A DNA stretch of 62,593 nt, from contig JAJXYJ010000006.1 of NCBI GenBank assembly GCA_021780615.1, positions 1-62,593 on the forward strand, in the 5' to 3' direction. Position 1 is the first letter of the stretch. Each line of letters begins with the position of its first letter. This document shows positions 16,799-37,599 of this stretch, one piece after another. The notes under the pieces were generated by a model. That model was not told the origin of the DNA and ran no database searches. It saw nothing but the letters and a program-made list of their open reading frames with translations. This stretch comes from a bacterium. Its GTDB lineage: Bacteria > Patescibacteriota > Minisyncoccia > UBA6257 > JAGOQP01. The position numbers were made by a program, and so were the translations under genes.

Positions 16799-18487
16799 TT
16801 AAAGTTTCTTCGGTTCAATTTTCCGTTTTGTTTTAACGTCATTCAAAAATATCTTAGAGCTATCAACATTTCCGCTATAGTAGTACGAGAGCGAGTTTTC
16901 CTCAAAATTGTAGACCATATTCTTTTTCAAAAAATGATCCAGAATTTCACGTCCCTGCTTTTCAAGTAATTCTTTCTTACCTTCTGGCAACTCTGTCGCG
17001 TCATAGAATTCTTGCTTGAAGCCCTGATACAACTTTGGGAAAGCCTCGGCCAATTTTGAGAAAATAGGTATGTGCAAATCCTTTGCTTGTGCCTTGTTTT
17101 GCTCTTCAGAGAAAGCGTAAGAACCGAACACAAAGAAATAAACCAGAATCATCGCTGGGGAATACCCTTTATAGTTAGGCATAATTCCGTCACCAAGAAT
17201 TTTCTTTTTTAACTTTTTAACAAAAGTGGAGTAGGCAATATTTGTCTTAAAACCGTCCTTTTGTATTTCAAGAAAGTGATCATACAACTGATACACTTTC
17301 AATCTAAATATCTCCTCATTTTCGATTTTGTATTTACTTATTGAATTGTGGAAAAGGTCATACAAAAATGTTCCTGTATTTTCTCTTACCTTTTTGCTCT
17401 TGTCCTTTGTTCTAACGCCGCATGTGTAATACCAACCAAACCCTTCGACACGATCTATAAGCATTTCTAATTGTTTTTGGTCATAGCATGATTCAATAAA
17501 CCCTCCGATTTCCTTAAAGAAAATACCGATCAACTCATCATTGAGTTCATAGTTTTTCTGGTAACCATCTTTTAAGCTAACGTGGTTATTTTCCTGATAC
17601 ACTAATCTAAAGTATCTGGTAACTAGAGAAATATAGTTTAATTGACCAACACTGGTTAAGCCATTGAACCCGTACTCTCCAAACAAAACTTGCAATAGCG
17701 AATTATTTTTATCTTTTATCATTGCGTCATCAAGACAAAATAAGCCATTCGGGTAAATCTTTTCTCCTATAAACATATTCAGAAATGAGTCACTATTTTC
17801 TAATGACTTAACCATCAGCCGCTTTAGAAAAAATTCTATATGAGACAAATCCTGCCCGCCTTGTTTTTGCTTTTCTCTATAAAAATCTATAGTGCGCCCA
17901 AAGACAAAATAAGATTCGGAAAAATGTTTGAGAAAAATATCACTAGCAAAATCATTTCTAAATATTTTTTGCACGTCTTTATTACTCAATGAAAGATCGA
18001 GTAAGTTTTCAAACAATTCTATGGATCCTCGAATAATTTGCACTTTGTCTAAATGGGCGTTAGACAAAGTTCCGGCTAAAATATCCTGGAAAATAGCAAT
18101 TTGATTTTTGTTGAGTCGTTCAAGTGGATTAAGAATTACCCATAGGTAAATCGCTATCGCTACACCCATAAAAATTGCACCCCCAATTTCAAAAATGAAT
18201 GGGTATCCAAGAAAAAGTCCGTCTAATTCTCCAAAAAATGCTAAAATTATACTCCCGACAGCGAGCCAAAGGGCCAACTTTCTTTTCCTATAATTCAAGC
18301 TGAACCTTAGCTCTCGTCTGTTTGAAATAAATTCAATAAAAGCAACAACTATGGCAATAGCTGTAATTGCGACGCCTAAATTGTATGAGGAATGGGTCTT
18401 CCAAATCGGATTATCCAAGATGGTGGCAGTAGTGTTACTAGACCATCCCTGTACACTCGTTAGAAATTGATAAAGACATTGATTCAT
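16799..18487 (-). CDS. orphan 562-aa integral membrane protein (about 4 N-terminal TM helices plus one near residue 455)
   Basis: Long uninterrupted ORF, AT-rich. Starts 6 nt after the HNH stop. No motif I can assign. Confidence 0.7.
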   Translation of the reverse strand: MNQCLYQFLTSVQGWSSNTTATILDNPIWKTHSSYNLGVAITAIAIVVAFIEFISNRRELRFSLNYRKRKLALWLAVGSIILAFFGELDGLFLGYPFIFEIGGAIFMGVAIAIYLWVILNPLERLNKNQIAIFQDILAGTLSNAHLDKVQIIRGSIELFENLLDLSLSNKDVQKIFRNDFASDIFLKHFSESYFVFGRTIDFYREKQKQGGQDLSHIEFFLKRLMVKSLENSDSFLNMFIGEKIYPNGLFCLDDAMIKDKNNSLLQVLFGEYGFNGLTSVGQLNYISLVTRYFRLVYQENNHVSLKDGYQKNYELNDELIGIFFKEIGGFIESCYDQKQLEMLIDRVEGFGWYYTCGVRTKDKSKKVRENTGTFLYDLFHNSISKYKIENEEIFRLKVYQLYDHFLEIQKDGFKTNIAYSTFVKKLKKKILGDGIMPNYKGYSPAMILVYFFVFGSYAFSEEQNKAQAKDLHIPIFSKLAEAFPKLYQGFKQEFYDATELPEGKKELLEKQGREILDHFLKKNMVYNFEENSLSYYYSGNVDSSKIFLNDVKTKRKIEPKKL

Positions 18488-18493
18488 TTATTT

Positions 18494-18730
18494 TTATCGA
18501 TTACCTTTTGCCCGATTATGGGTTTTGCACAACATCTCGCAATTCTTTGCCGAAGTAGCACCGCCCTTACTCCATGCTAACACATGGTCAGCTTCCATTT
18601 CGCCAAAACTCCAAATTTTTTCCTTGTTAGAGTCATGCCTAACGGCACAAAGCGAGCAGTTTGATTTTTCTTTAGCTTCTGCTTCTTTAGTTTGTTTTGC
18701 GTTCGCGTATGCACTCAATGTTTTTACCAA
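18494..18730 (-). CDS. stand-alone HNH endonuclease domain protein
   Basis: CSLCAV...EADHVLAWSKGGATSAKNCEMLCKTHNRAKGN is an HNH beta-beta-alpha-Me motif with Cys pairs. No ATG is available (TTG at 18730). An out-of-frame ATG at 18752 precedes an A5 run. Confidence 0.7.
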   Translation of the reverse strand: MVKTLSAYANAKQTKEAEAKEKSNCSLCAVRHDSNKEKIWSFGEMEADHVLAWSKGGATSAKNCEMLCKTHNRAKGNR

Positions 18731-18794: not shown

Positions 18795-18918
18795 TATTGT
18801 CATATATTACAAATATGCAAATATTAAAGCGCCGGAACCAAAACAAAAAATTTCCTTTTTTCAAATATTCCACCTCGCGCCGACCCTATTTCGACTTTTG
18901 ATTTCGATTTTTAATTTT

Positions 18919-19080
18919 GGCGGAGAGGGCGGAAAGGTTGAATTTGGCCTCGACTAAATTTTTTCCGTCGAAAAAATTTGTCTGGCCACCACCTCATATA
19001 CAATTCTGTTGAATTGTATATATTCCGGTGTTCAAATCCCGATTGGCTCACAAGCAGTTGTGAGCCTCCCCTCTCCGCCA
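18919..19080. repeat. tRNA-Ser-end-derived hairpin-rich element E1
   Basis: Starts with GGCGGAGAGGGCGG (13 nt identical to the complement of the tRNA-Ser 3' end). Ends with the inverted copy CCCTCTCCGCC(A). Contains three perfect 9-11 bp hairpins and a GTTCAAATCC T-loop-like string. Confidence 0.6.
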
Positions 19081-19120
19081 TACATGCAAAAGCCCCTTTA
19101 TAGGGGCGTATTTATTGTAT

Positions 19121-19277
19121 GGCGGAGAGGGCGGGATTTGGCTACAAGTAAATTTTTCTTCCGAAAAATTTCCCGCAGCCCGCCCCTCGCGGCGCTTCTC
19201 GCCATATCGCTCGTCGCGCAGCGCTGCGGTCTTCAAATCCTCCACGTGAGTGAATCAATTCACTCACTCTCTCCGCA
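19121..19277. repeat. tRNA-Ser-end-derived hairpin-rich element E2
   Basis: 19122-19140 is identical to 19312-19330 (19 nt of the tRNA-Ser 3' end, same orientation). The right end CTCTCCGC is its inverted copy. Same AAATTTTT-loop-AAAAATTT hairpin as E1. Confidence 0.6.
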
Positions 19278-19305
19278 AAATTAAAACCCGCATATAAGCG
19301 GGCTT
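19277..19305 (-). terminator. intrinsic terminator after tRNA-Ser
   Basis: Minus strand AAGCCCGC-TTATAT-GCGGGTTTTAATTTT, immediately 3' of the tRNA. Confidence 0.7.
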
Positions 19306-19312
19306 AATTTTG

Positions 19313-19397
19313 CGGAGAGGGCGGGATTTGAACCCGCGATACCTTGCGGTATACCCACTTTCCAGGCGGGCGCACTAGACCACTATGCGACCTCTCC
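19313..19397 (-). tRNA. tRNA-Ser (anticodon GGA), class II with long variable arm
   Basis: Folds by hand: GGAGAGG/CCTCTCC acceptor, GCA..TGC D stem with GG, CCCGC-CTGGAAA-GTGGG anticodon arm, ATACC-GCAA-GGTAT variable arm, GCGGG-TTCAAAT-CCCGC T arm, discriminator G. No encoded CCA. Confidence 0.9.
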
Positions 19398-19655
19398 ATA
19401 TATCTCGTTTAGTGCGTGTTTCAATTTTCCTTTCAGAACTTCACGCCCATGACCAGTTTTAAAATATTTTTCTGCCTCCTGAGCATCTTTCTTGTTACTA
19501 TAAGCTTCATAAAATATCAAATCAAACGTTCCATTTTTTGATGTAAAGTCCGAATGGCCAGCTTGATGCTCTTCAATCCTGCGTTTAAGATTGTTGGTAA
19601 ATCCCTTGTATAATTTTCCATTTTGCTTAAAGCGCAAAACGTAGAAGTAATACAT
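19383..19655 (-). CDS. GIY-YIG nuclease family protein (small COG2827/UPF0213-like)
   Basis: MYYFYVLRFKQNGKLYKGFTNNLKRRIEEHQAG...FYEAYSNKKDAQEAEKYFK fits the GIY-YIG...R...H...E pattern. The last 4 codons and the stop lie inside tRNA-Ser nt 1-15. Confidence 0.85.
   Translation of the reverse strand: MYYFYVLRFKQNGKLYKGFTNNLKRRIEEHQAGHSDFTSKNGTFDLIFYEAYSNKKDAQEAEKYFKTGHGREVLKGKLKHALNEIYGEVA
19385..19412. repeat. 28-bp direct repeat, proximal copy (tRNA-Ser nt 1-13 plus 15 nt of leader)
   Basis: ATGCGACCTCTCCATATATCTCGTTTAG is identical to 19705-19732. Confidence 0.95.
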
Positions 19656-19704
19656 TTCTTATTGACCACTTCCGCCTCACCGGCGGATGCGCCGACGAGG
19701 CGCA

Positions 19705-19732
19705 ATGCGACCTCTCCATATATCTCGTTTAG
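19705..19732. repeat. 28-bp direct repeat, distal copy, bracketed by twin TGCGCC-GAYGA-GGCGCA hairpins (19688-19704, 19737-19753)
   Basis: Exact copy of 19385-19412. The two copies flank the GIY-YIG gene. Confidence 0.95.
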
Positions 19733-19927
19733 CGTGTGCGCCGATGAGGCGCAACGTGTAGAGCATAGCAAAGCGATATGCGCTATGCAAGAAAATACTT
19801 CGTAACAAAACAATGTGCGTATATGTATTAAAAGGTATAGGTTTTAATATTCGCTTTGCTTTGGATATGCATAAAAGGTCGATCCAATGATGCAATCATT
19901 ATAAAAAATAATTACGTGTACTACTAT

Positions 19928-20869: not shown

Positions 20870-20902
20870 TGTTCTTTCGATGTCGGGAATCGAAAGATGT
20901 TT
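20870..20902. repeat. 33-bp inverted repeat, left copy
   Basis: TGTTCTTTCGATGTCGGGAATCGAAAGATGTTT equals the reverse complement of 25863-25895 at 32 of 33 positions. Contains an internal TTTCGAT-n7-ATCGAAA palindrome. Confidence 0.95.
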
Positions 20903-22295
20903 ATTTCCAAAAAAATGGTGCTATACGAAGTTTTTCGGGAAGTCTGTTGAGGCCGGGTATGTATGGAAATGCCACCAACAGAAGCATCAGAAATCCAAGT
21001 ATTTCGGCGCCATCACGATCTTGATTAGGATCAGTTGCCAACAATGTATGATCCAAAAGCCCAATGGGTGCCAACCACCATGCACCCGGTAATCCCCCGC
21101 TTTCTTCGCGCACCATGCCATACTGATCAGTGGTTATGCCCAAGCGTTGCGCATGGGCTTCGAGAACGCCGGTATCAGAAAGAAATCGATCAACATATGT
21201 GGCATTCAGCGCGTTTGTTTGATTGCTTTGCAGACTGGTTTGATACAGACCGCTTTGCGCCATGTGTACCAATGTGCTGATGACTGCAATGACGGGATTA
21301 GCGGTATCCGCATTATTGAGCACTGCATGTTGTTGTGAAAAATAACCCATTGCATCTTGTATTTGTTGTTGCTGCACGGCGGCGGGCTCTTGAGTCCATA
21401 CCGCAAACATGTCCTGTCCCTCGATTGTTTGCATGTATTGCCTGTATGGATGGGCGATGTATATCGTTTGCGTATCGTAGGCATAGGGATCGATACCATC
21501 CATATAGGTAGCGGTACCCGATGTATGATTCATTTCTTGAAGCAATGTTTGTGCTACCAGTGAGGGACTGTCTTGAGCAACACTTTGGATGGTGGTGGCG
21601 ATAATGAGCGGCGATGGAAAAAGAAATGCCAATAAAATAATAACACCTGTTATAATTCCTCCGCGAACAAAAAGAATGCGGTGCTTTGCGGGAACCATTT
21701 GATATGAGGTGCTTTTTTGATACGGGCGGGCAATTCCCAGCGTACGGACTAGTATATAGTGCAGTGCAAGAAGTCCCACAATAATGAATGGAATAAGAAT
21801 AATGTGAATGCCGTATATTTGGGCATAGTTAAGATTATTGATGAATGCGCCCAGTCCGCTACCGTTGTATAAATCCGATGCCTGTAAGGCGCGCCATTGC
21901 GATGAAAAATCGCCGCGCAATCCATATCCGAATTCCGCCTCAAAAAATGCCGCAAAAAGCATGAGCGTGCCGATGACCCACGTGCGCCGTCGCGGTTTTC
22001 GAAAGCCCGATGTTAAAAATACAATAAGAAGATGCAGGAAAATGAAAAATATAAACGCCTGTGCTGACCACAAATGTACGCTTCTCAAGAACAACCCCGC
22101 CTGCGTGGTAAGCCACCAATGGGGACCAAAAAATACCATGACCAATCCGGAAAGTATTAAAAGCAATAGCGACGTCATGGAAAGAAATCCCATGGAATAA
22201 AATATCTTATTCGCGTATGCGGGAACTTCTTGCAACATAAATCCTCGCAAAGTCCCCCACAGAGAAACTGGTTGTAATGGTGTTTGTTCTTCCAT
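20901..22295 (-). CDS. cytochrome b/b6 N-terminal-domain protein fused to a ~250-aa C-terminal extension
   Basis: RSVH-x13-H...SGFRKPRRRTWVIG (helix B and the PR..W..G motif) and H-x14-H (GIHIILIPFIIVGLLALHY, helix D). All four bis-haem histidine ligands are in b6-type spacing. Confidence 0.8.
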   Translation of the reverse strand: MEEQTPLQPVSLWGTLRGFMLQEVPAYANKIFYSMGFLSMTSLLLLILSGLVMVFFGPHWWLTTQAGLFLRSVHLWSAQAFIFFIFLHLLIVFLTSGFRKPRRRTWVIGTLMLFAAFFEAEFGYGLRGDFSSQWRALQASDLYNGSGLGAFINNLNYAQIYGIHIILIPFIIVGLLALHYILVRTLGIARPYQKSTSYQMVPAKHRILFVRGGIITGVIILLAFLFPSPLIIATTIQSVAQDSPSLVAQTLLQEMNHTSGTATYMDGIDPYAYDTQTIYIAHPYRQYMQTIEGQDMFAVWTQEPAAVQQQQIQDAMGYFSQQHAVLNNADTANPVIAVISTLVHMAQSGLYQTSLQSNQTNALNATYVDRFLSDTGVLEAHAQRLGITTDQYGMVREESGGLPGAWWLAPIGLLDHTLLATDPNQDRDGAEILGFLMLLLVAFPYIPGLNRLPEKLRIAPFFWK

Positions 22296-36484: not shown

Positions 36485-36561
36485 AGCAATAGGTTATTGT
36501 ACAGGATTTTTGAGTTAGTTCAATGGTAGCTGGAGAGGGATTTTTATTATACAATCATCCT

Positions 36562-37599
36562 ATGACCGCAAAGCTTCAAAAAATCATTGCCGAACTTCCT
36601 CAAAAGCCGGGAGTATATTTTTTCAAAAATAGAAAGGAAGAGATTCTCTATATCGGCAAGGCAAAAAATATTAAAAAGCGCATCCAGTCGCACTTCGCTT
36701 CAAAGGGCAATTTTGGAAATTTTTATTCACAAGCTAGAAACATTGATTTCATACAAACCCGCACGGAGAAAGACGCATTCATTCTTGAAAATGAACTGAT
36801 TAAAAAATATCAACCGAAATACAACGCCGAATTAAAGGATGATAAAAATTATGCATTCGTTGTTTTAACCGATGAGGCATACCCAAAGGTGGTCGTGACT
36901 CACCAACCTAAAACCACACAGGGTACTGCTATTGGGCCTTTTATTAGCACCAGAGAACTTAAAAAATTTCTCTTTGATATCAGAAACATATTTCCTTATC
37001 GTACCTGTAAAAATGGCGTTGATAAGCCGTGTTTGTATTATCACTTAGGATTATGTGCCGCGCATGGTAAGGAAGCACAACATTATTCCTTAATTATGGC
37101 GGGCCTTGAAACAAGTATTCGTATGTACAATGGTGAAAAAAAACATCTAGAATGTTATGACATATCAAATACCCAAGGATCACTTTCTGTGGGCTCTATG
37201 GTTACCTTCAAGGGAAGTCGGCCTGATAAAAATCTATATCGTAAGTTTAAGATAAAAACCGTGCATGGTGCCGATGATCCACGATCACTTAAAGAAATAT
37301 TGGAACGTCGACTGACTCATACTGAATGGCGCTATCCGGATATGCTCATAGTTGATGGAGGTAAATCACAGTTATCAGCACTCAAAAAAATCCCCCTCCC
37401 CCTCATCGGCCTTGCCAAAGATCACCGCGCCAAAAGTGATGCTTCTCTTTTTTCTCCCTTTGGGCATGGGCCCGTGTCCTTGCGCGTCATGCCGGAAAGT
37501 ATTCGTACCACCCTCCTACGAGCTCGTGATGAAGCGCATCGATTCGCCATCACCTATCATCGCGCCAGAAGACTTCAAGAAATAAAACAAAACTCATAG
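36562..37599 (+). CDS. uvrC: excinuclease ABC subunit C, minimal form (GIY-YIG plus RNase-H-like endonuclease domain)
   Basis: PGVYFFKNRKEEILYIGKAKNIKKRIQSHF (GIY-YIG), ECYDISNTQG...IVDGGKSQL...RDEAHRFAITYHR. Only 345 aa. No UvrB-binding UVR motif or (HhH)2 is visible. Confidence 0.85.
   Translation: MTAKLQKIIAELPQKPGVYFFKNRKEEILYIGKAKNIKKRIQSHFASKGNFGNFYSQARNIDFIQTRTEKDAFILENELIKKYQPKYNAELKDDKNYAFVVLTDEAYPKVVVTHQPKTTQGTAIGPFISTRELKKFLFDIRNIFPYRTCKNGVDKPCLYYHLGLCAAHGKEAQHYSLIMAGLETSIRMYNGEKKHLECYDISNTQGSLSVGSMVTFKGSRPDKNLYRKFKIKTVHGADDPRSLKEILERRLTHTEWRYPDMLIVDGGKSQLSALKKIPLPLIGLAKDHRAKSDASLFSPFGHGPVSLRVMPESIRTTLLRARDEAHRFAITYHRARRLQEIKQNS

Follow-up and report, generated by a model that had tools for sequence, protein, structure and literature searches.

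A small GIY-YIG nuclease gene that shares its stop codon with a tRNA-Ser gene of a Patescibacteria genome belongs to a cross-phylum family of tRNA-associated, probably selfish cassettes

The DNA stretch analysed here (contig JAJXYJ010000006.1 of assembly GCA_021780615.1, positions 1 to 62,593, in the following referred to as the window) originates from a member of the Patescibacteria and carries on its minus strand a tRNA-Ser(GGA) gene which is directly preceded, and partly overlapped, by an open reading frame (ORF) predicted to encode a GIY-YIG nuclease of 90 amino acids (aa). Upstream of this ORF a part of the tRNA gene is found a second time, interrupted by GC-rich hairpins. ARAGORN gave the start of the tRNA gene as 19312/3 and its end as 19397, and an Rfam scan of the locus detected no family besides tRNA. 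The locus comprises the following features:

19284-19305, minus strand: terminator-like hairpin followed by a T-run, directly past the tRNA 3' end
19313-19397, minus strand: functional (proximal) tRNA-Ser(GGA), detected by ARAGORN and Rfam (RF00005, 57.8 bits) and read from the sequence
19383-19655, minus strand: GIY-YIG nuclease ORF of the UPF0213/Slx1-cluster type, 90 aa, assigned by Pfam, matches to solved structures in the Protein Data Bank (PDB) and an AlphaFold2 (AF2) model
19385-19412, no strand assigned: proximal copy of an exact 28-nt repeat, made up of the ORF 3' end (15 nt) and tRNA nt 1-13
19656-19663, minus strand: A-rich spacer of 8 nt ahead of the ATG, read from the sequence
19664-19670, minus strand: copy of tRNA nt 14-20 (AGTGGTC), where the partial tRNA resumes past the hairpins
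19671-19687, minus strand: hairpin HP2, TCCGCC-GGTGA-GGCGGA
19688-19704, minus strand: hairpin HP1, TGCGCC-TCGTC-GGCGCA
19705-19717, minus strand: distal copy of tRNA-Ser nt 1-13 (GGAGAGGTCGCAT), a non-functional 5' fragment
19718-19736, minus strand: putative 19-nt relic of the ORF 3' end (CACGC--TAAACGAGATATAT), strain-specific
19737-19753, minus strand: outer hairpin HP1', strain-specific and without counterpart in the sister strain described below
19762-19790, minus strand: putative promoter-like element TTGCAT-17 nt-TATGCT upstream of the whole unit, a weak match to the consensus

The nuclease ORF and the tRNA gene share 15 nt. The last codons of the ORF, GGA GAG GTC GCA TAG, are identical to tRNA nt 1-15, i.e. 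the tRNA gene provides the final four sense codons as well as the TAG stop codon (nt 13-15). An earlier note on this DNA, made from the sequence alone, had described both this ending of the last five codons inside the tRNA and an exact 28-bp direct repeat around the nuclease gene, and both were found as described. The 28-mer ATGCGACCTCTCCATATATCTCGTTTAG has two exact matches in the window (19385-19412 and 19705-19732) while none was expected according to 100 shuffles, and the similarity extends 5 nt further if a 2-nt gap is allowed. Twin hairpins of the form TGCGCC-GAYGA-GGCGCA, which had been thought to bracket the distal repeat copy, are indeed present at 19688-19704 and 19737-19753 (chance expectation 0), and HP2, which reads TCCGCC-TCACC-GGCGGA on the plus strand, is a third related hairpin of the locus; mere bracketing does not describe their position, since HP1 and HP2 sit within a partial tRNA copy in the relatives. 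Nine independent assemblies (ENA, metagenome-assembled genomes (MAGs) at NCBI, Logan) encode the identical protein and match the window over the covered part of -300 to +900 around the ORF start, one of them with a single mismatch. As four of these nine span both repeat copies, an assembly artefact as the source of the repeat was rejected. Samples of mine drainage and of wastewater contain the lineage.

According to Pfam the ORF encodes a GIY-YIG domain (PF01541; 58.3 bits against a cut-off of 22.6, E value 9e-16). In an alignment with 34 relatives sharing 39-79% identity with the window protein, Y5, Y16, G18, R26, E50, E62, K66 and G70 are invariant and H30 is nearly so; the catalytic tyrosines of the GIY and YIG motifs, the arginine and the metal-binding glutamate correspond to Y5, Y16, R26 and E50. 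The median dN/dS (ratio of non-synonymous to synonymous substitution rates) of approximately 0.11 within the clade of nucleases associated with tRNA-Ser (Ser clade) points to purifying selection. A phmmer search identified the UPF0213 proteins 1ZG2 and 1YWL as the sole solved relatives by sequence. The AF2 model (mean confidence score pLDDT 85) shows the order of elements E-E-H-H-E-H-H and hence the beta-beta-alpha-alpha-beta-alpha fold of GIY-YIG domains, with the five tRNA-encoded tail residues modelled as disordered. Foldseek ranked 1ZG2 first, followed by Slx1, 1YWL and then I-TevI and UvrC, the matches to Slx1 including the complex of Slx1 with 5'-flap DNA. The protein consists of the catalytic domain alone, which comprises 86-90 aa in the family, and carries no DNA-binding module. 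No defence-system model of PADLOC matches the nuclease; NCBIfam gave just a sub-threshold match to a group I intron endonuclease model and PHROGS weak generic GIY-YIG matches. In sequence and fold the protein is a stand-alone member of the UPF0213/Slx1 cluster (COG2827). It looks active, as predicted from the invariant catalytic residues, the low dN/dS and the nearest folds, UPF0213 and Slx1, the latter a structure-specific nuclease known to cut DNA flaps and junctions.

The arrangement recurs at many other loci, which are numbered with the prefix L in the following. A scan of one genome per species revealed 52 loci encoding relatives of the nuclease, mostly in Patescibacteria and otherwise in Bacteroidales, Fibrobacter and gammaproteobacteria; pooling all fetched loci resulted in 72 distinct homologous ORFs from Patescibacteria, Bacteroidota and other phyla. 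A search for further copies of the gene beside tRNAs had been suggested by the earlier note. ARAGORN predicted a same-strand tRNA gene within 200 nt downstream of 50 of the 72 ORFs, and 39 ORFs read into the tRNA by exactly 10 nt or by 15-16 nt. The 10-nt overlaps derive their TAG stop codon from U8-A9-G10, the 15-nt overlaps a TAG or TAA from nt 13-15. The partner tRNAs belong to at least 12 types (Ser, Arg, Asp, Ala, Ile, Thr, Phe, Gln, Gly, Leu, Lys and Met). Cultured bacteria that carry the cassette include Polaribacter sp. BAL334 and Flavobacterium sp. MAHUQ-51. All of the closest relatives of the window nuclease (74-85% identical) are located on tRNA-Ser, mostly with the anticodon GGA or TGA, and end with the tRNA-encoded residues GGVA before the stop codon. 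The locus in the window is one member of a large cross-phylum family and no unique event.

In 41 of the 48 tRNA-linked ORFs the 5' end of the partner tRNA is found a second time, as a partial copy upstream of the ATG, compared to approximately 0.08 expected per locus by chance. This distal copy is broken by a GC-rich hairpin, past which the tRNA sequence resumes for 6-25 nt and is followed by a short spacer and the ATG. The break points differ across the clades and are found after nt 8-9, 13, 15, 17, 20-22 or 32. The Ser clade shows the order tRNA nt 1-13, HP1, HP2, tRNA nt 14-20, spacer, ORF and tRNA (in the window 19717-19705, 19704-19688, 19687-19671, 19670-19664 and 19663-19656, then the ORF and the tRNA), HP1 and HP2 together separating nt 13 from nt 14 of the distal copy at a position in the D-loop. 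Other clades carry a longer hairpin, CCCGCCCGAACG...CGTTCGGGCGGG, or the palindrome CCTGCCTGCCGGCAGGCAGG at the break point. Since the resumed segment tracks the D-loop variant of the local tRNA (AGTGGCT in L011, AGTGGCC(TA) in L018, AGCGGT in L031), the distal piece has been copied from the resident tRNA and is no constant component of the element. We are highly confident of this architecture of a hairpin-split tRNA copy, an ORF and an overlapping tRNA. The cassette itself consists of its signature GC-rich palindromic hairpin or hairpins and the single-domain UPF0213/Slx1-type GIY-YIG ORF; its site is a tRNA gene whose 5' end has been partially duplicated in tandem, and the downstream copy, abutting the ORF, is the working tRNA.

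Some loci deviate from this order. In Flavobacterium sp. MAHUQ-51 (L275, 1319-2360) two repeats, each composed of a 107-nt spacer, a GIY-YIG ORF and a pseudo-tRNA-Arg, lie downstream of an intact tRNA-Arg(TCG), i.e. the intact tRNA is the upstream copy, opposite to the usual order, and both pseudo-tRNA-Arg copies contain hairpins in the D-loop as well as in the T-loop. In L100 (2905-2995), at 85% identity the closest relative outside the species, a 33-nt insert with tRNA-Ser nt 21-29 (CTAGTGCGC) interrupts HP1. Two further models of the anatomy were set aside. A mobile unit composed of the ORF and the whole tRNA, displacing the tRNA 3' part, would leave a downstream copy of the tRNA 3' end, which was found in just 4 of 34 loci, where it belongs to a different element of approximately 160 nt. 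For a 'break and rescue' model, in which the hairpin disrupts a full tRNA and the ORF then brings a repair copy, the scanned loci yielded only one convincing hairpin-bearing full-length tRNA (L034), besides the two hairpin-riddled pseudo-tRNAs of L275.

The sister strain (L099), whose nuclease is 98% identical, shares with the window the element TTGCAT-17-TATGCT as well as HP1, HP2, AGTGGTC, the ORF and the tRNA. Between the promoter-like element and the distal copy of tRNA nt 1-13, however, it carries an unrelated leader of 43 nt, without outer hairpin and without a copy of the ORF end. Of the 28-nt repeat only the copy of tRNA nt 1-13 recurs there, with one mismatch. Positions 19718-19736 of the window represent a copy of the last 19 nt of the ORF, with a 2-nt gap relative to its current end and a sequence intermediate between the ORF ends of the window and L099. 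The succession of ORF end, tRNA nt 1-13 and HP1 in the window is exactly the junction predicted for two tandem cassettes, and intact tandem cassettes are present in L038 and L279; L026 carries a comparable extra pair HP1'-HP2'. Because the sister strain lacks the segment and its sequence has the form of a tandem junction, positions 19718-19753 look like the relic of a second, upstream (tandem or older) cassette whose body was deleted. From the tRNA 3' end onwards the sequences of the window, L098 and L099 immediately cease to agree, which suggests that this end is an insertion hot spot of its own.

The earlier note had proposed a single insertion of the GIY-YIG gene that created a 28-bp target-site duplication, composed of 15 nt of leader and tRNA nt 1-13, and that left the tRNA without its ancestral promoter. 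An exact direct repeat of 28 nt on either side of the gene would agree with such an event. However, a target-site duplication consists of pre-existing target only, whereas the 15 presumed leader nucleotides are the conserved coding 3' end of the element's own ORF and are missing from the distal copy in L099, which has the same cassette behind another leader and without outer hairpin; the relatives have in common only the tRNA-derived part of the repeat. Nor was the tRNA probably cut off from its promoter, since the promoter-like element, conserved in L099, precedes the whole unit. Of the proposed insertion footprint at the tRNA 5' end an insertion-type feature with flanking direct repeats is left, a simple 28-bp target duplication is not. 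Taking the anatomy of the sister strain and the relatives together, the single-insertion explanation is already contradicted and is considered very improbable.

The hairpin type tracks the clade of the nuclease and not the host phylum or the tRNA. The clade starting with MYYFYVLRF... carries the TGCGCC/TCCGCC pair and the MYTVYVL... clade CCCGCCCGAACG..., while CCTGCCTGCCGGCAGGCAGG is found in the MF(Y)FVY/MFYTY... clade, which spans a WWE3 (Patescibacteria) genome, Bacteroidota and gammaproteobacteria. A GC-rich hairpin is located within 130 nt upstream of 59 of the 72 ORFs, a few of them not of the types of the family. In gammaproteobacteria and Fibrobacter the hairpin also directly precedes ORFs without a tRNA nearby (L043, L046, L053 and L036); L043, L046 and L053 sit between putative restriction-modification genes, judging from flanks read by eye, and L046 has hairpins on both sides of the ORF. 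Because their type follows the protein clade and because they precede the ORF in non-tRNA contexts as well, the hairpins are regarded as part of the cassette and as the predicted partner of the nuclease. The 34-nt unit of HP1 and HP2 can refold into a single hairpin of 13 bp with cruciform geometry. A role as ribosome-binding or start-site element was set aside, the distance to the ATG ranging from 7 to approximately 60 nt.

The hairpins occur without the nuclease, too. Approximately half of the 48 loci of other genomes at which the Ser-type pair of HP1 and HP2 was found (about 24) are solo, with no nuclease within -400/+900 nt, and most of these lie directly past stop codons. The exact 20-nt palindrome CCTGCCTGCCGGCAGGCAGG was detected at at least 120 loci in at least 10 phyla, including cultured Flavobacteriia, where less than one was expected; among the matches listed, 6 of 125 copies adjoin a GIY-YIG gene and most are solo. 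Copies of CCTGCCTGCCGGCAGGCAGG (L149-L268) are often embedded in intergenic DNA rich in short tandem repeats or lie between direct or inverted repeats of 6-11 nt.

These dispersed copies suggest a comparison with REP/RAYT systems (repetitive extragenic palindromes and their associated tyrosine transposases), the transposases of which are typically single-copy. The hairpins might accordingly be REP-like palindromes with host or neutral roles, for instance as terminators, the GIY-YIG protein their possibly domesticated cognate enzyme, and the tRNA association a secondary preference for loops. This explanation would account for the solo copies, for hairpins on both sides of the ORF in L046, for their covariation with the nuclease clade and for the hairpins in the D- and T-loops of the L275 pseudo-tRNAs. 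It leaves the exact abutment of the ORF to tRNA +1 and the tRNA 5' duplications unexplained; moreover, the enzyme is no HUH tyrosine transposase, the hairpin pair occurs at 2-3 places in several MAGs and the gene in tandem at some loci, and the three hairpin copies of the 62-kb window are all located at the tRNA-Ser locus, with no solo ones. We consider it rather unlikely. The resemblance to REPtrons and REPINs (PMC2817692, PMC3116915) nevertheless includes dispersed GC-rich palindromes mostly at gene ends and a clade-specific enzyme gene flanked by cognate palindromes. The cassette differs in its GIY-YIG instead of HUH/Y1 (IS200/IS605-like) enzyme, in the several hairpin pairs per genome and the tandem genes, in its location inside tRNA fragments and in a palindrome that is identical across at least 10 phyla, unlike the vertically inherited REPINs.

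Several findings speak for mobility. The gene is present in tandem copies in L038, and a tRNA-Leu locus with the same flanks contains one copy in 19 places (L276 and 18 similar ones) and two in L279. Relics lacking the ORF (L123, L178) have kept the order of tRNA fragment, hairpin, short spacer and tRNA. Nucleases sharing 65-75% identity are found on different tRNA types (Ala/Ile, Phe/Ala and Ile/Asp), and Ser-clade members at non-tRNA sites (L024, L025) are 76-81% identical to tRNA-linked ones. Several MAGs contain the Ser-type hairpin pair at 2-3 places. Across lineages the Ser-clade nucleases share 74-85% identity, whereas the neighbouring gene of the window shares at most 63% identity with its closest homologs, which belong to the Lactamase_B_3 family and do not keep the tRNA-Ser locus beside them. 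Based on the tandems, the one-versus-two-copy polymorphism, the relics and the switching between tRNA types, the cassette is likely to be selfish or mobile, and the locus in the window is probably one copy of a compact and widespread selfish cassette of the UPF0213/Slx1 type. The assumption that COG2827/UPF0213-type genes are non-mobile, taken up in the earlier note, is probably wrong. Its mobility hypothesis was broadly right, while the anatomy differs from the one it proposed and the phenomenon is far larger.

A host function was considered as well, in which the small GIY-YIG protein is a tRNA-linked housekeeping or quality-control nuclease and the tRNA fragment with its hairpin a regulatory 5' leader. 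Apart from the strong purifying selection and the apparent organisation of ORF and tRNA in one transcription unit, the family context may indicate such a role, since members of a UPF0213 branch were described to be recurrently fused to, or in operons with, two methyltransferases (a TrmH-like SPOUT tRNA methyltransferase and one of COG4123), and a link to RNA metabolism was suggested (Dunin-Horkawicz et al. 2006, PMC1564403); adjacency to tRNA genes is not reported in that study. A host gene would, however, hardly be expected to show tandem copies and copy-number polymorphism, relics without the ORF, at least 12 tRNA partners among close relatives, copies with the same hairpin away from tRNAs and hairpin-riddled pseudo-tRNAs. 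The PADLOC and NCBIfam results, without a defence match and with just the sub-threshold group I intron endonuclease hit, do not support it either, and a host function seems quite unlikely.

Alternatively, the gene could be a free-standing homing endonuclease that cuts the uninterrupted tRNA allele, whereupon break repair copies the cassette in and the hairpin merely destroys the target. Insertion in a highly conserved gene and the sporadic distribution over multiple lineages would fit, and GIY-YIG homing endonucleases are known, including SegB in the tRNA cluster of phage T4 (PMC2330249). Genes of the phage Seg family are likewise intron-less, selfish and sporadic GIY-YIG genes beside tRNAs. 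The Seg proteins possess C-terminal DNA-binding domains, and their genes have their own stop codon and are placed between genes, unlike the cassette; conversely, the tRNA 5' duplication, the cognate palindrome and the tRNA overlap of the cassette are absent from Seg genes. A catalytic domain alone, an intact proximal tRNA that would stay a target and the failure to find an empty allele (see below) all argue against homing, as does the hairpin, which is conserved, covaries with the nuclease and occurs off tRNAs and so would do more than disrupt. Homing in this form is considered unlikely, though less so than a host function.

The selfish cassette reading has its own difficulties. An empty tRNA-Ser site lacking the GIY-YIG gene, for which the earlier note had proposed to look in related genomes, was not found: Logan contigs of 4 DNA runs contain no 320-nt skip, and the predicted empty-allele sequence (sister-strain leader and uninterrupted tRNA) has no match in metagenome contigs. 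Neither was a circular or excised form of the cassette seen. The GIY-YIG gene is the only ORF of the cassette, which encodes no recombinase, and a catalytic domain of 86-90 aa has no obvious way of recognising a long specific target. A host function acquired by domestication would likewise be compatible with the strong purifying selection and the conservation. Finally, the crossover model described in the following does not by itself explain the place of the hairpin inside the distal copy, nor why nt 14-20 track the local tRNA variant. All of these points weigh against the interpretation favoured here.

As for the mechanism, the selfish cassette may spread and amplify by nuclease-stimulated recombination through the short tRNA repeats. 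Integration could occur by a single crossover ('ends-in' or circle-type) together with unequal exchange: a circle or linear fragment with the order ORF, tRNA nt 1-k, hairpin and tRNA nt k+1-m, recombining within nt 1-k, would give the observed order. The same crossover could also account for the tandems and for L034, where a hairpin, tRNA nt 1-45, the ORF, an intact tRNA and a terminator are followed by a full tRNA with the same hairpin. The 28-nt repeat and second hairpin of the window would then represent the junction relic of a tandem copy whose ORF body was later deleted. The hairpin may be the cognate structured DNA site of the nuclease, and we speculate that the substrate of the Slx1-like enzyme is the hairpin or cruciform, or else tRNA-gene DNA folded as a cloverleaf. 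Such an action on folded DNA would be the most economical reason for the ORF ending at tRNA +1 and for hairpins landing in loops. This specific recombination model is offered tentatively.

A still more tentative extension is that UPF0213-type GIY-YIG proteins are the mobilising enzymes of the cross-phylum GC-rich palindromes, similar to REP systems on another catalytic fold, with their sites found by DNA structure. According to this idea tRNA genes would extrude a cloverleaf in single-stranded or supercoiled DNA, and the enzymes would cleave it in its loops and at the base of its acceptor stem (+1). Structure-guided cutting would lead to an ORF abutting nt +1, to hairpins in the D-, anticodon- and T-arm and to the duplication of the tRNA 5' end. 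If true, it would represent a new mode of DNA mobility and provide a function for a large protein family annotated with 'unknown function'.

The unit of distal fragment, ORF and tRNA is presumably transcribed from the native promoter of the tRNA. This is suggested by the element TTGCAT-17-TATGCT, which the window and L099 have both kept amid diverged surroundings, by a TAnnTTTG box just ahead of the distal tRNA fragment in the Bacteroidota relatives and by L100, where the distal fragment begins directly past the stop codon of the upstream kinase gene. A scan with the promoter consensus did not list the element at 19762-19790. The metatranscriptomes of the same study contained nothing from the tRNA-Ser/nuclease locus, and RNA runs found with a Bacteroidales locus had only tRNA words in common with it. 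It is plausible that RNase P removes the stop codon of the nuclease, as the earlier note had pointed out, and the same would be expected for all members of the family. The cut at tRNA +1 would separate the nuclease message from its stop codon, and a non-stop mRNA of this kind would keep expression low, since the nuclease would be made only from the unprocessed precursor.

Tyrosine or serine recombinases of tRNA-associated islands and prophages likewise leave an intact tRNA and a displaced partial copy as a direct repeat. Their crossover lies in the 3' part of the tRNA, whereas the cassette duplicates the 5' end, measures approximately 0.35 kb, carries a single ORF and no recombinase, and has a displaced fragment split by a hairpin. 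As a system the cassette most resembles a free-standing homing gene combined with REP/RAYT-like palindromes, and it also mirrors the integration of integrase-type elements into tRNA genes. It lacks a defining feature of each of these systems, having no DNA-binding domain, no HUH enzyme and no recombinase and using the tRNA 5' end. Among eukaryotic elements the retrotransposons Ty3 and Dictyostelium TRE5 are selfish, too, and benefit from a safe, well-expressed location on the upstream side of tRNA genes; they are RNA-mediated, directed by Pol III factors and insert upstream without overlapping or duplicating the tRNA gene. The UPF0213/YhbQ-YazA proteins (COG2827; 1ZG2, 1YWL), which represent the Slx1 cluster in bacteria, share with the window nuclease the single domain of approximately 90 aa, the GIY, YIG, Arg and Glu residues and the nearest fold, but have no assigned function and are treated as non-mobile, unlike the cassette as interpreted here. 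A study of rRNA insertions in bacteria of the Candidate Phyla Radiation (CPR) described GIY-YIG ORFs in non-intron insertions. In the literature searched, which was not exhaustive, there was no account of the tRNA adjacency, the common stop codon, the partial tRNA duplication, the cognate hairpins or the hairpin sequences, and a selfish-element family on tRNA genes has apparently been undescribed so far.

UPF0213/YhbQ, for which two structural-genomics structures have been available since 2005 and no function has been assigned, thereby gains a concrete context and a probable selfish lifestyle. Bacterial tRNA genes can be colonised from their 5' side by a cassette of approximately 350 bp sharing its stop codon with the tRNA. 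Gene callers and tRNA finders annotate two unrelated features at such loci and miss the partial or hairpin-split tRNA copies. The cassette is tied to cross-phylum palindromes, one of them an exact 20-mer in at least 10 phyla, the spread of which needs explaining. Expression of the nuclease might be controlled by RNase P, whose processing would deprive the mRNA of its stop codon. The elements are common in the streamlined genomes of Patescibacteria, where every tRNA gene is usually single-copy.

Just 3' of tRNA-Ser the window contains two diverged units of approximately 160 nt (19120-19277 and 18918-19080), which are also present downstream of tRNA-Ser in L019, L022 and L028, and furthermore in L187. 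Read on the minus strand, each unit has the complement of the tRNA-Ser 3' end at its start and a copy of this 3' end, followed by CCA, at its end, so that the termini pair as a stem of 8-12 bp; the tRNA gene of the window encodes no CCA. The units are predicted to fold very stably (minimum free energy -66 to -81 kcal/mol, z -6 to -10) and contain a reversed T-loop motif and 2-3 perfect AT-rich hairpins, followed by a terminator-like hairpin on the plus strand. Rfam contains no match for them; removal of the three hairpins from the plus strand of unit 2 resulted in a weak tRNA-like match by ARAGORN. They look like inverted, hairpin-riddled tRNA-Ser-like pseudogenes or a tRNA-like RNA.

Further downstream, a 78-aa ORF with an HNH domain only (18494-18730, minus strand) abuts a 562-aa ORF without family match (16799-18487), and the region 16799-18730 has a low GC content (0.38). 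Strains with the same tRNA and nuclease differ in the sequence directly 3' of the tRNA, and an ORF at this position in L098 is putatively recombinase-like, judging from its sequence. Accordingly, 16799-18730 may be an island integrated at the 3' end of tRNA-Ser.

Elsewhere in the window, a 358-aa ORF (36523-37599, plus strand) matches just the N-terminal GIY-YIG part of UvrC (TIGR00194, positions 3-170 of 574). UvrC normally comprises approximately 600 aa, and the gene at 36523-37599 may be split or truncated. Positions 20901-22295 (minus strand) encode a cytochrome b family protein (PF00033/PF13631) according to the precomputed annotation of identical contigs. In Patescibacteria, genes of the respiratory chain are uncommon. 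For both genes that were checked, the GIY-YIG gene and the adjoining metallo-beta-lactamase gene, all closest homologs belong to Patescibacteria.

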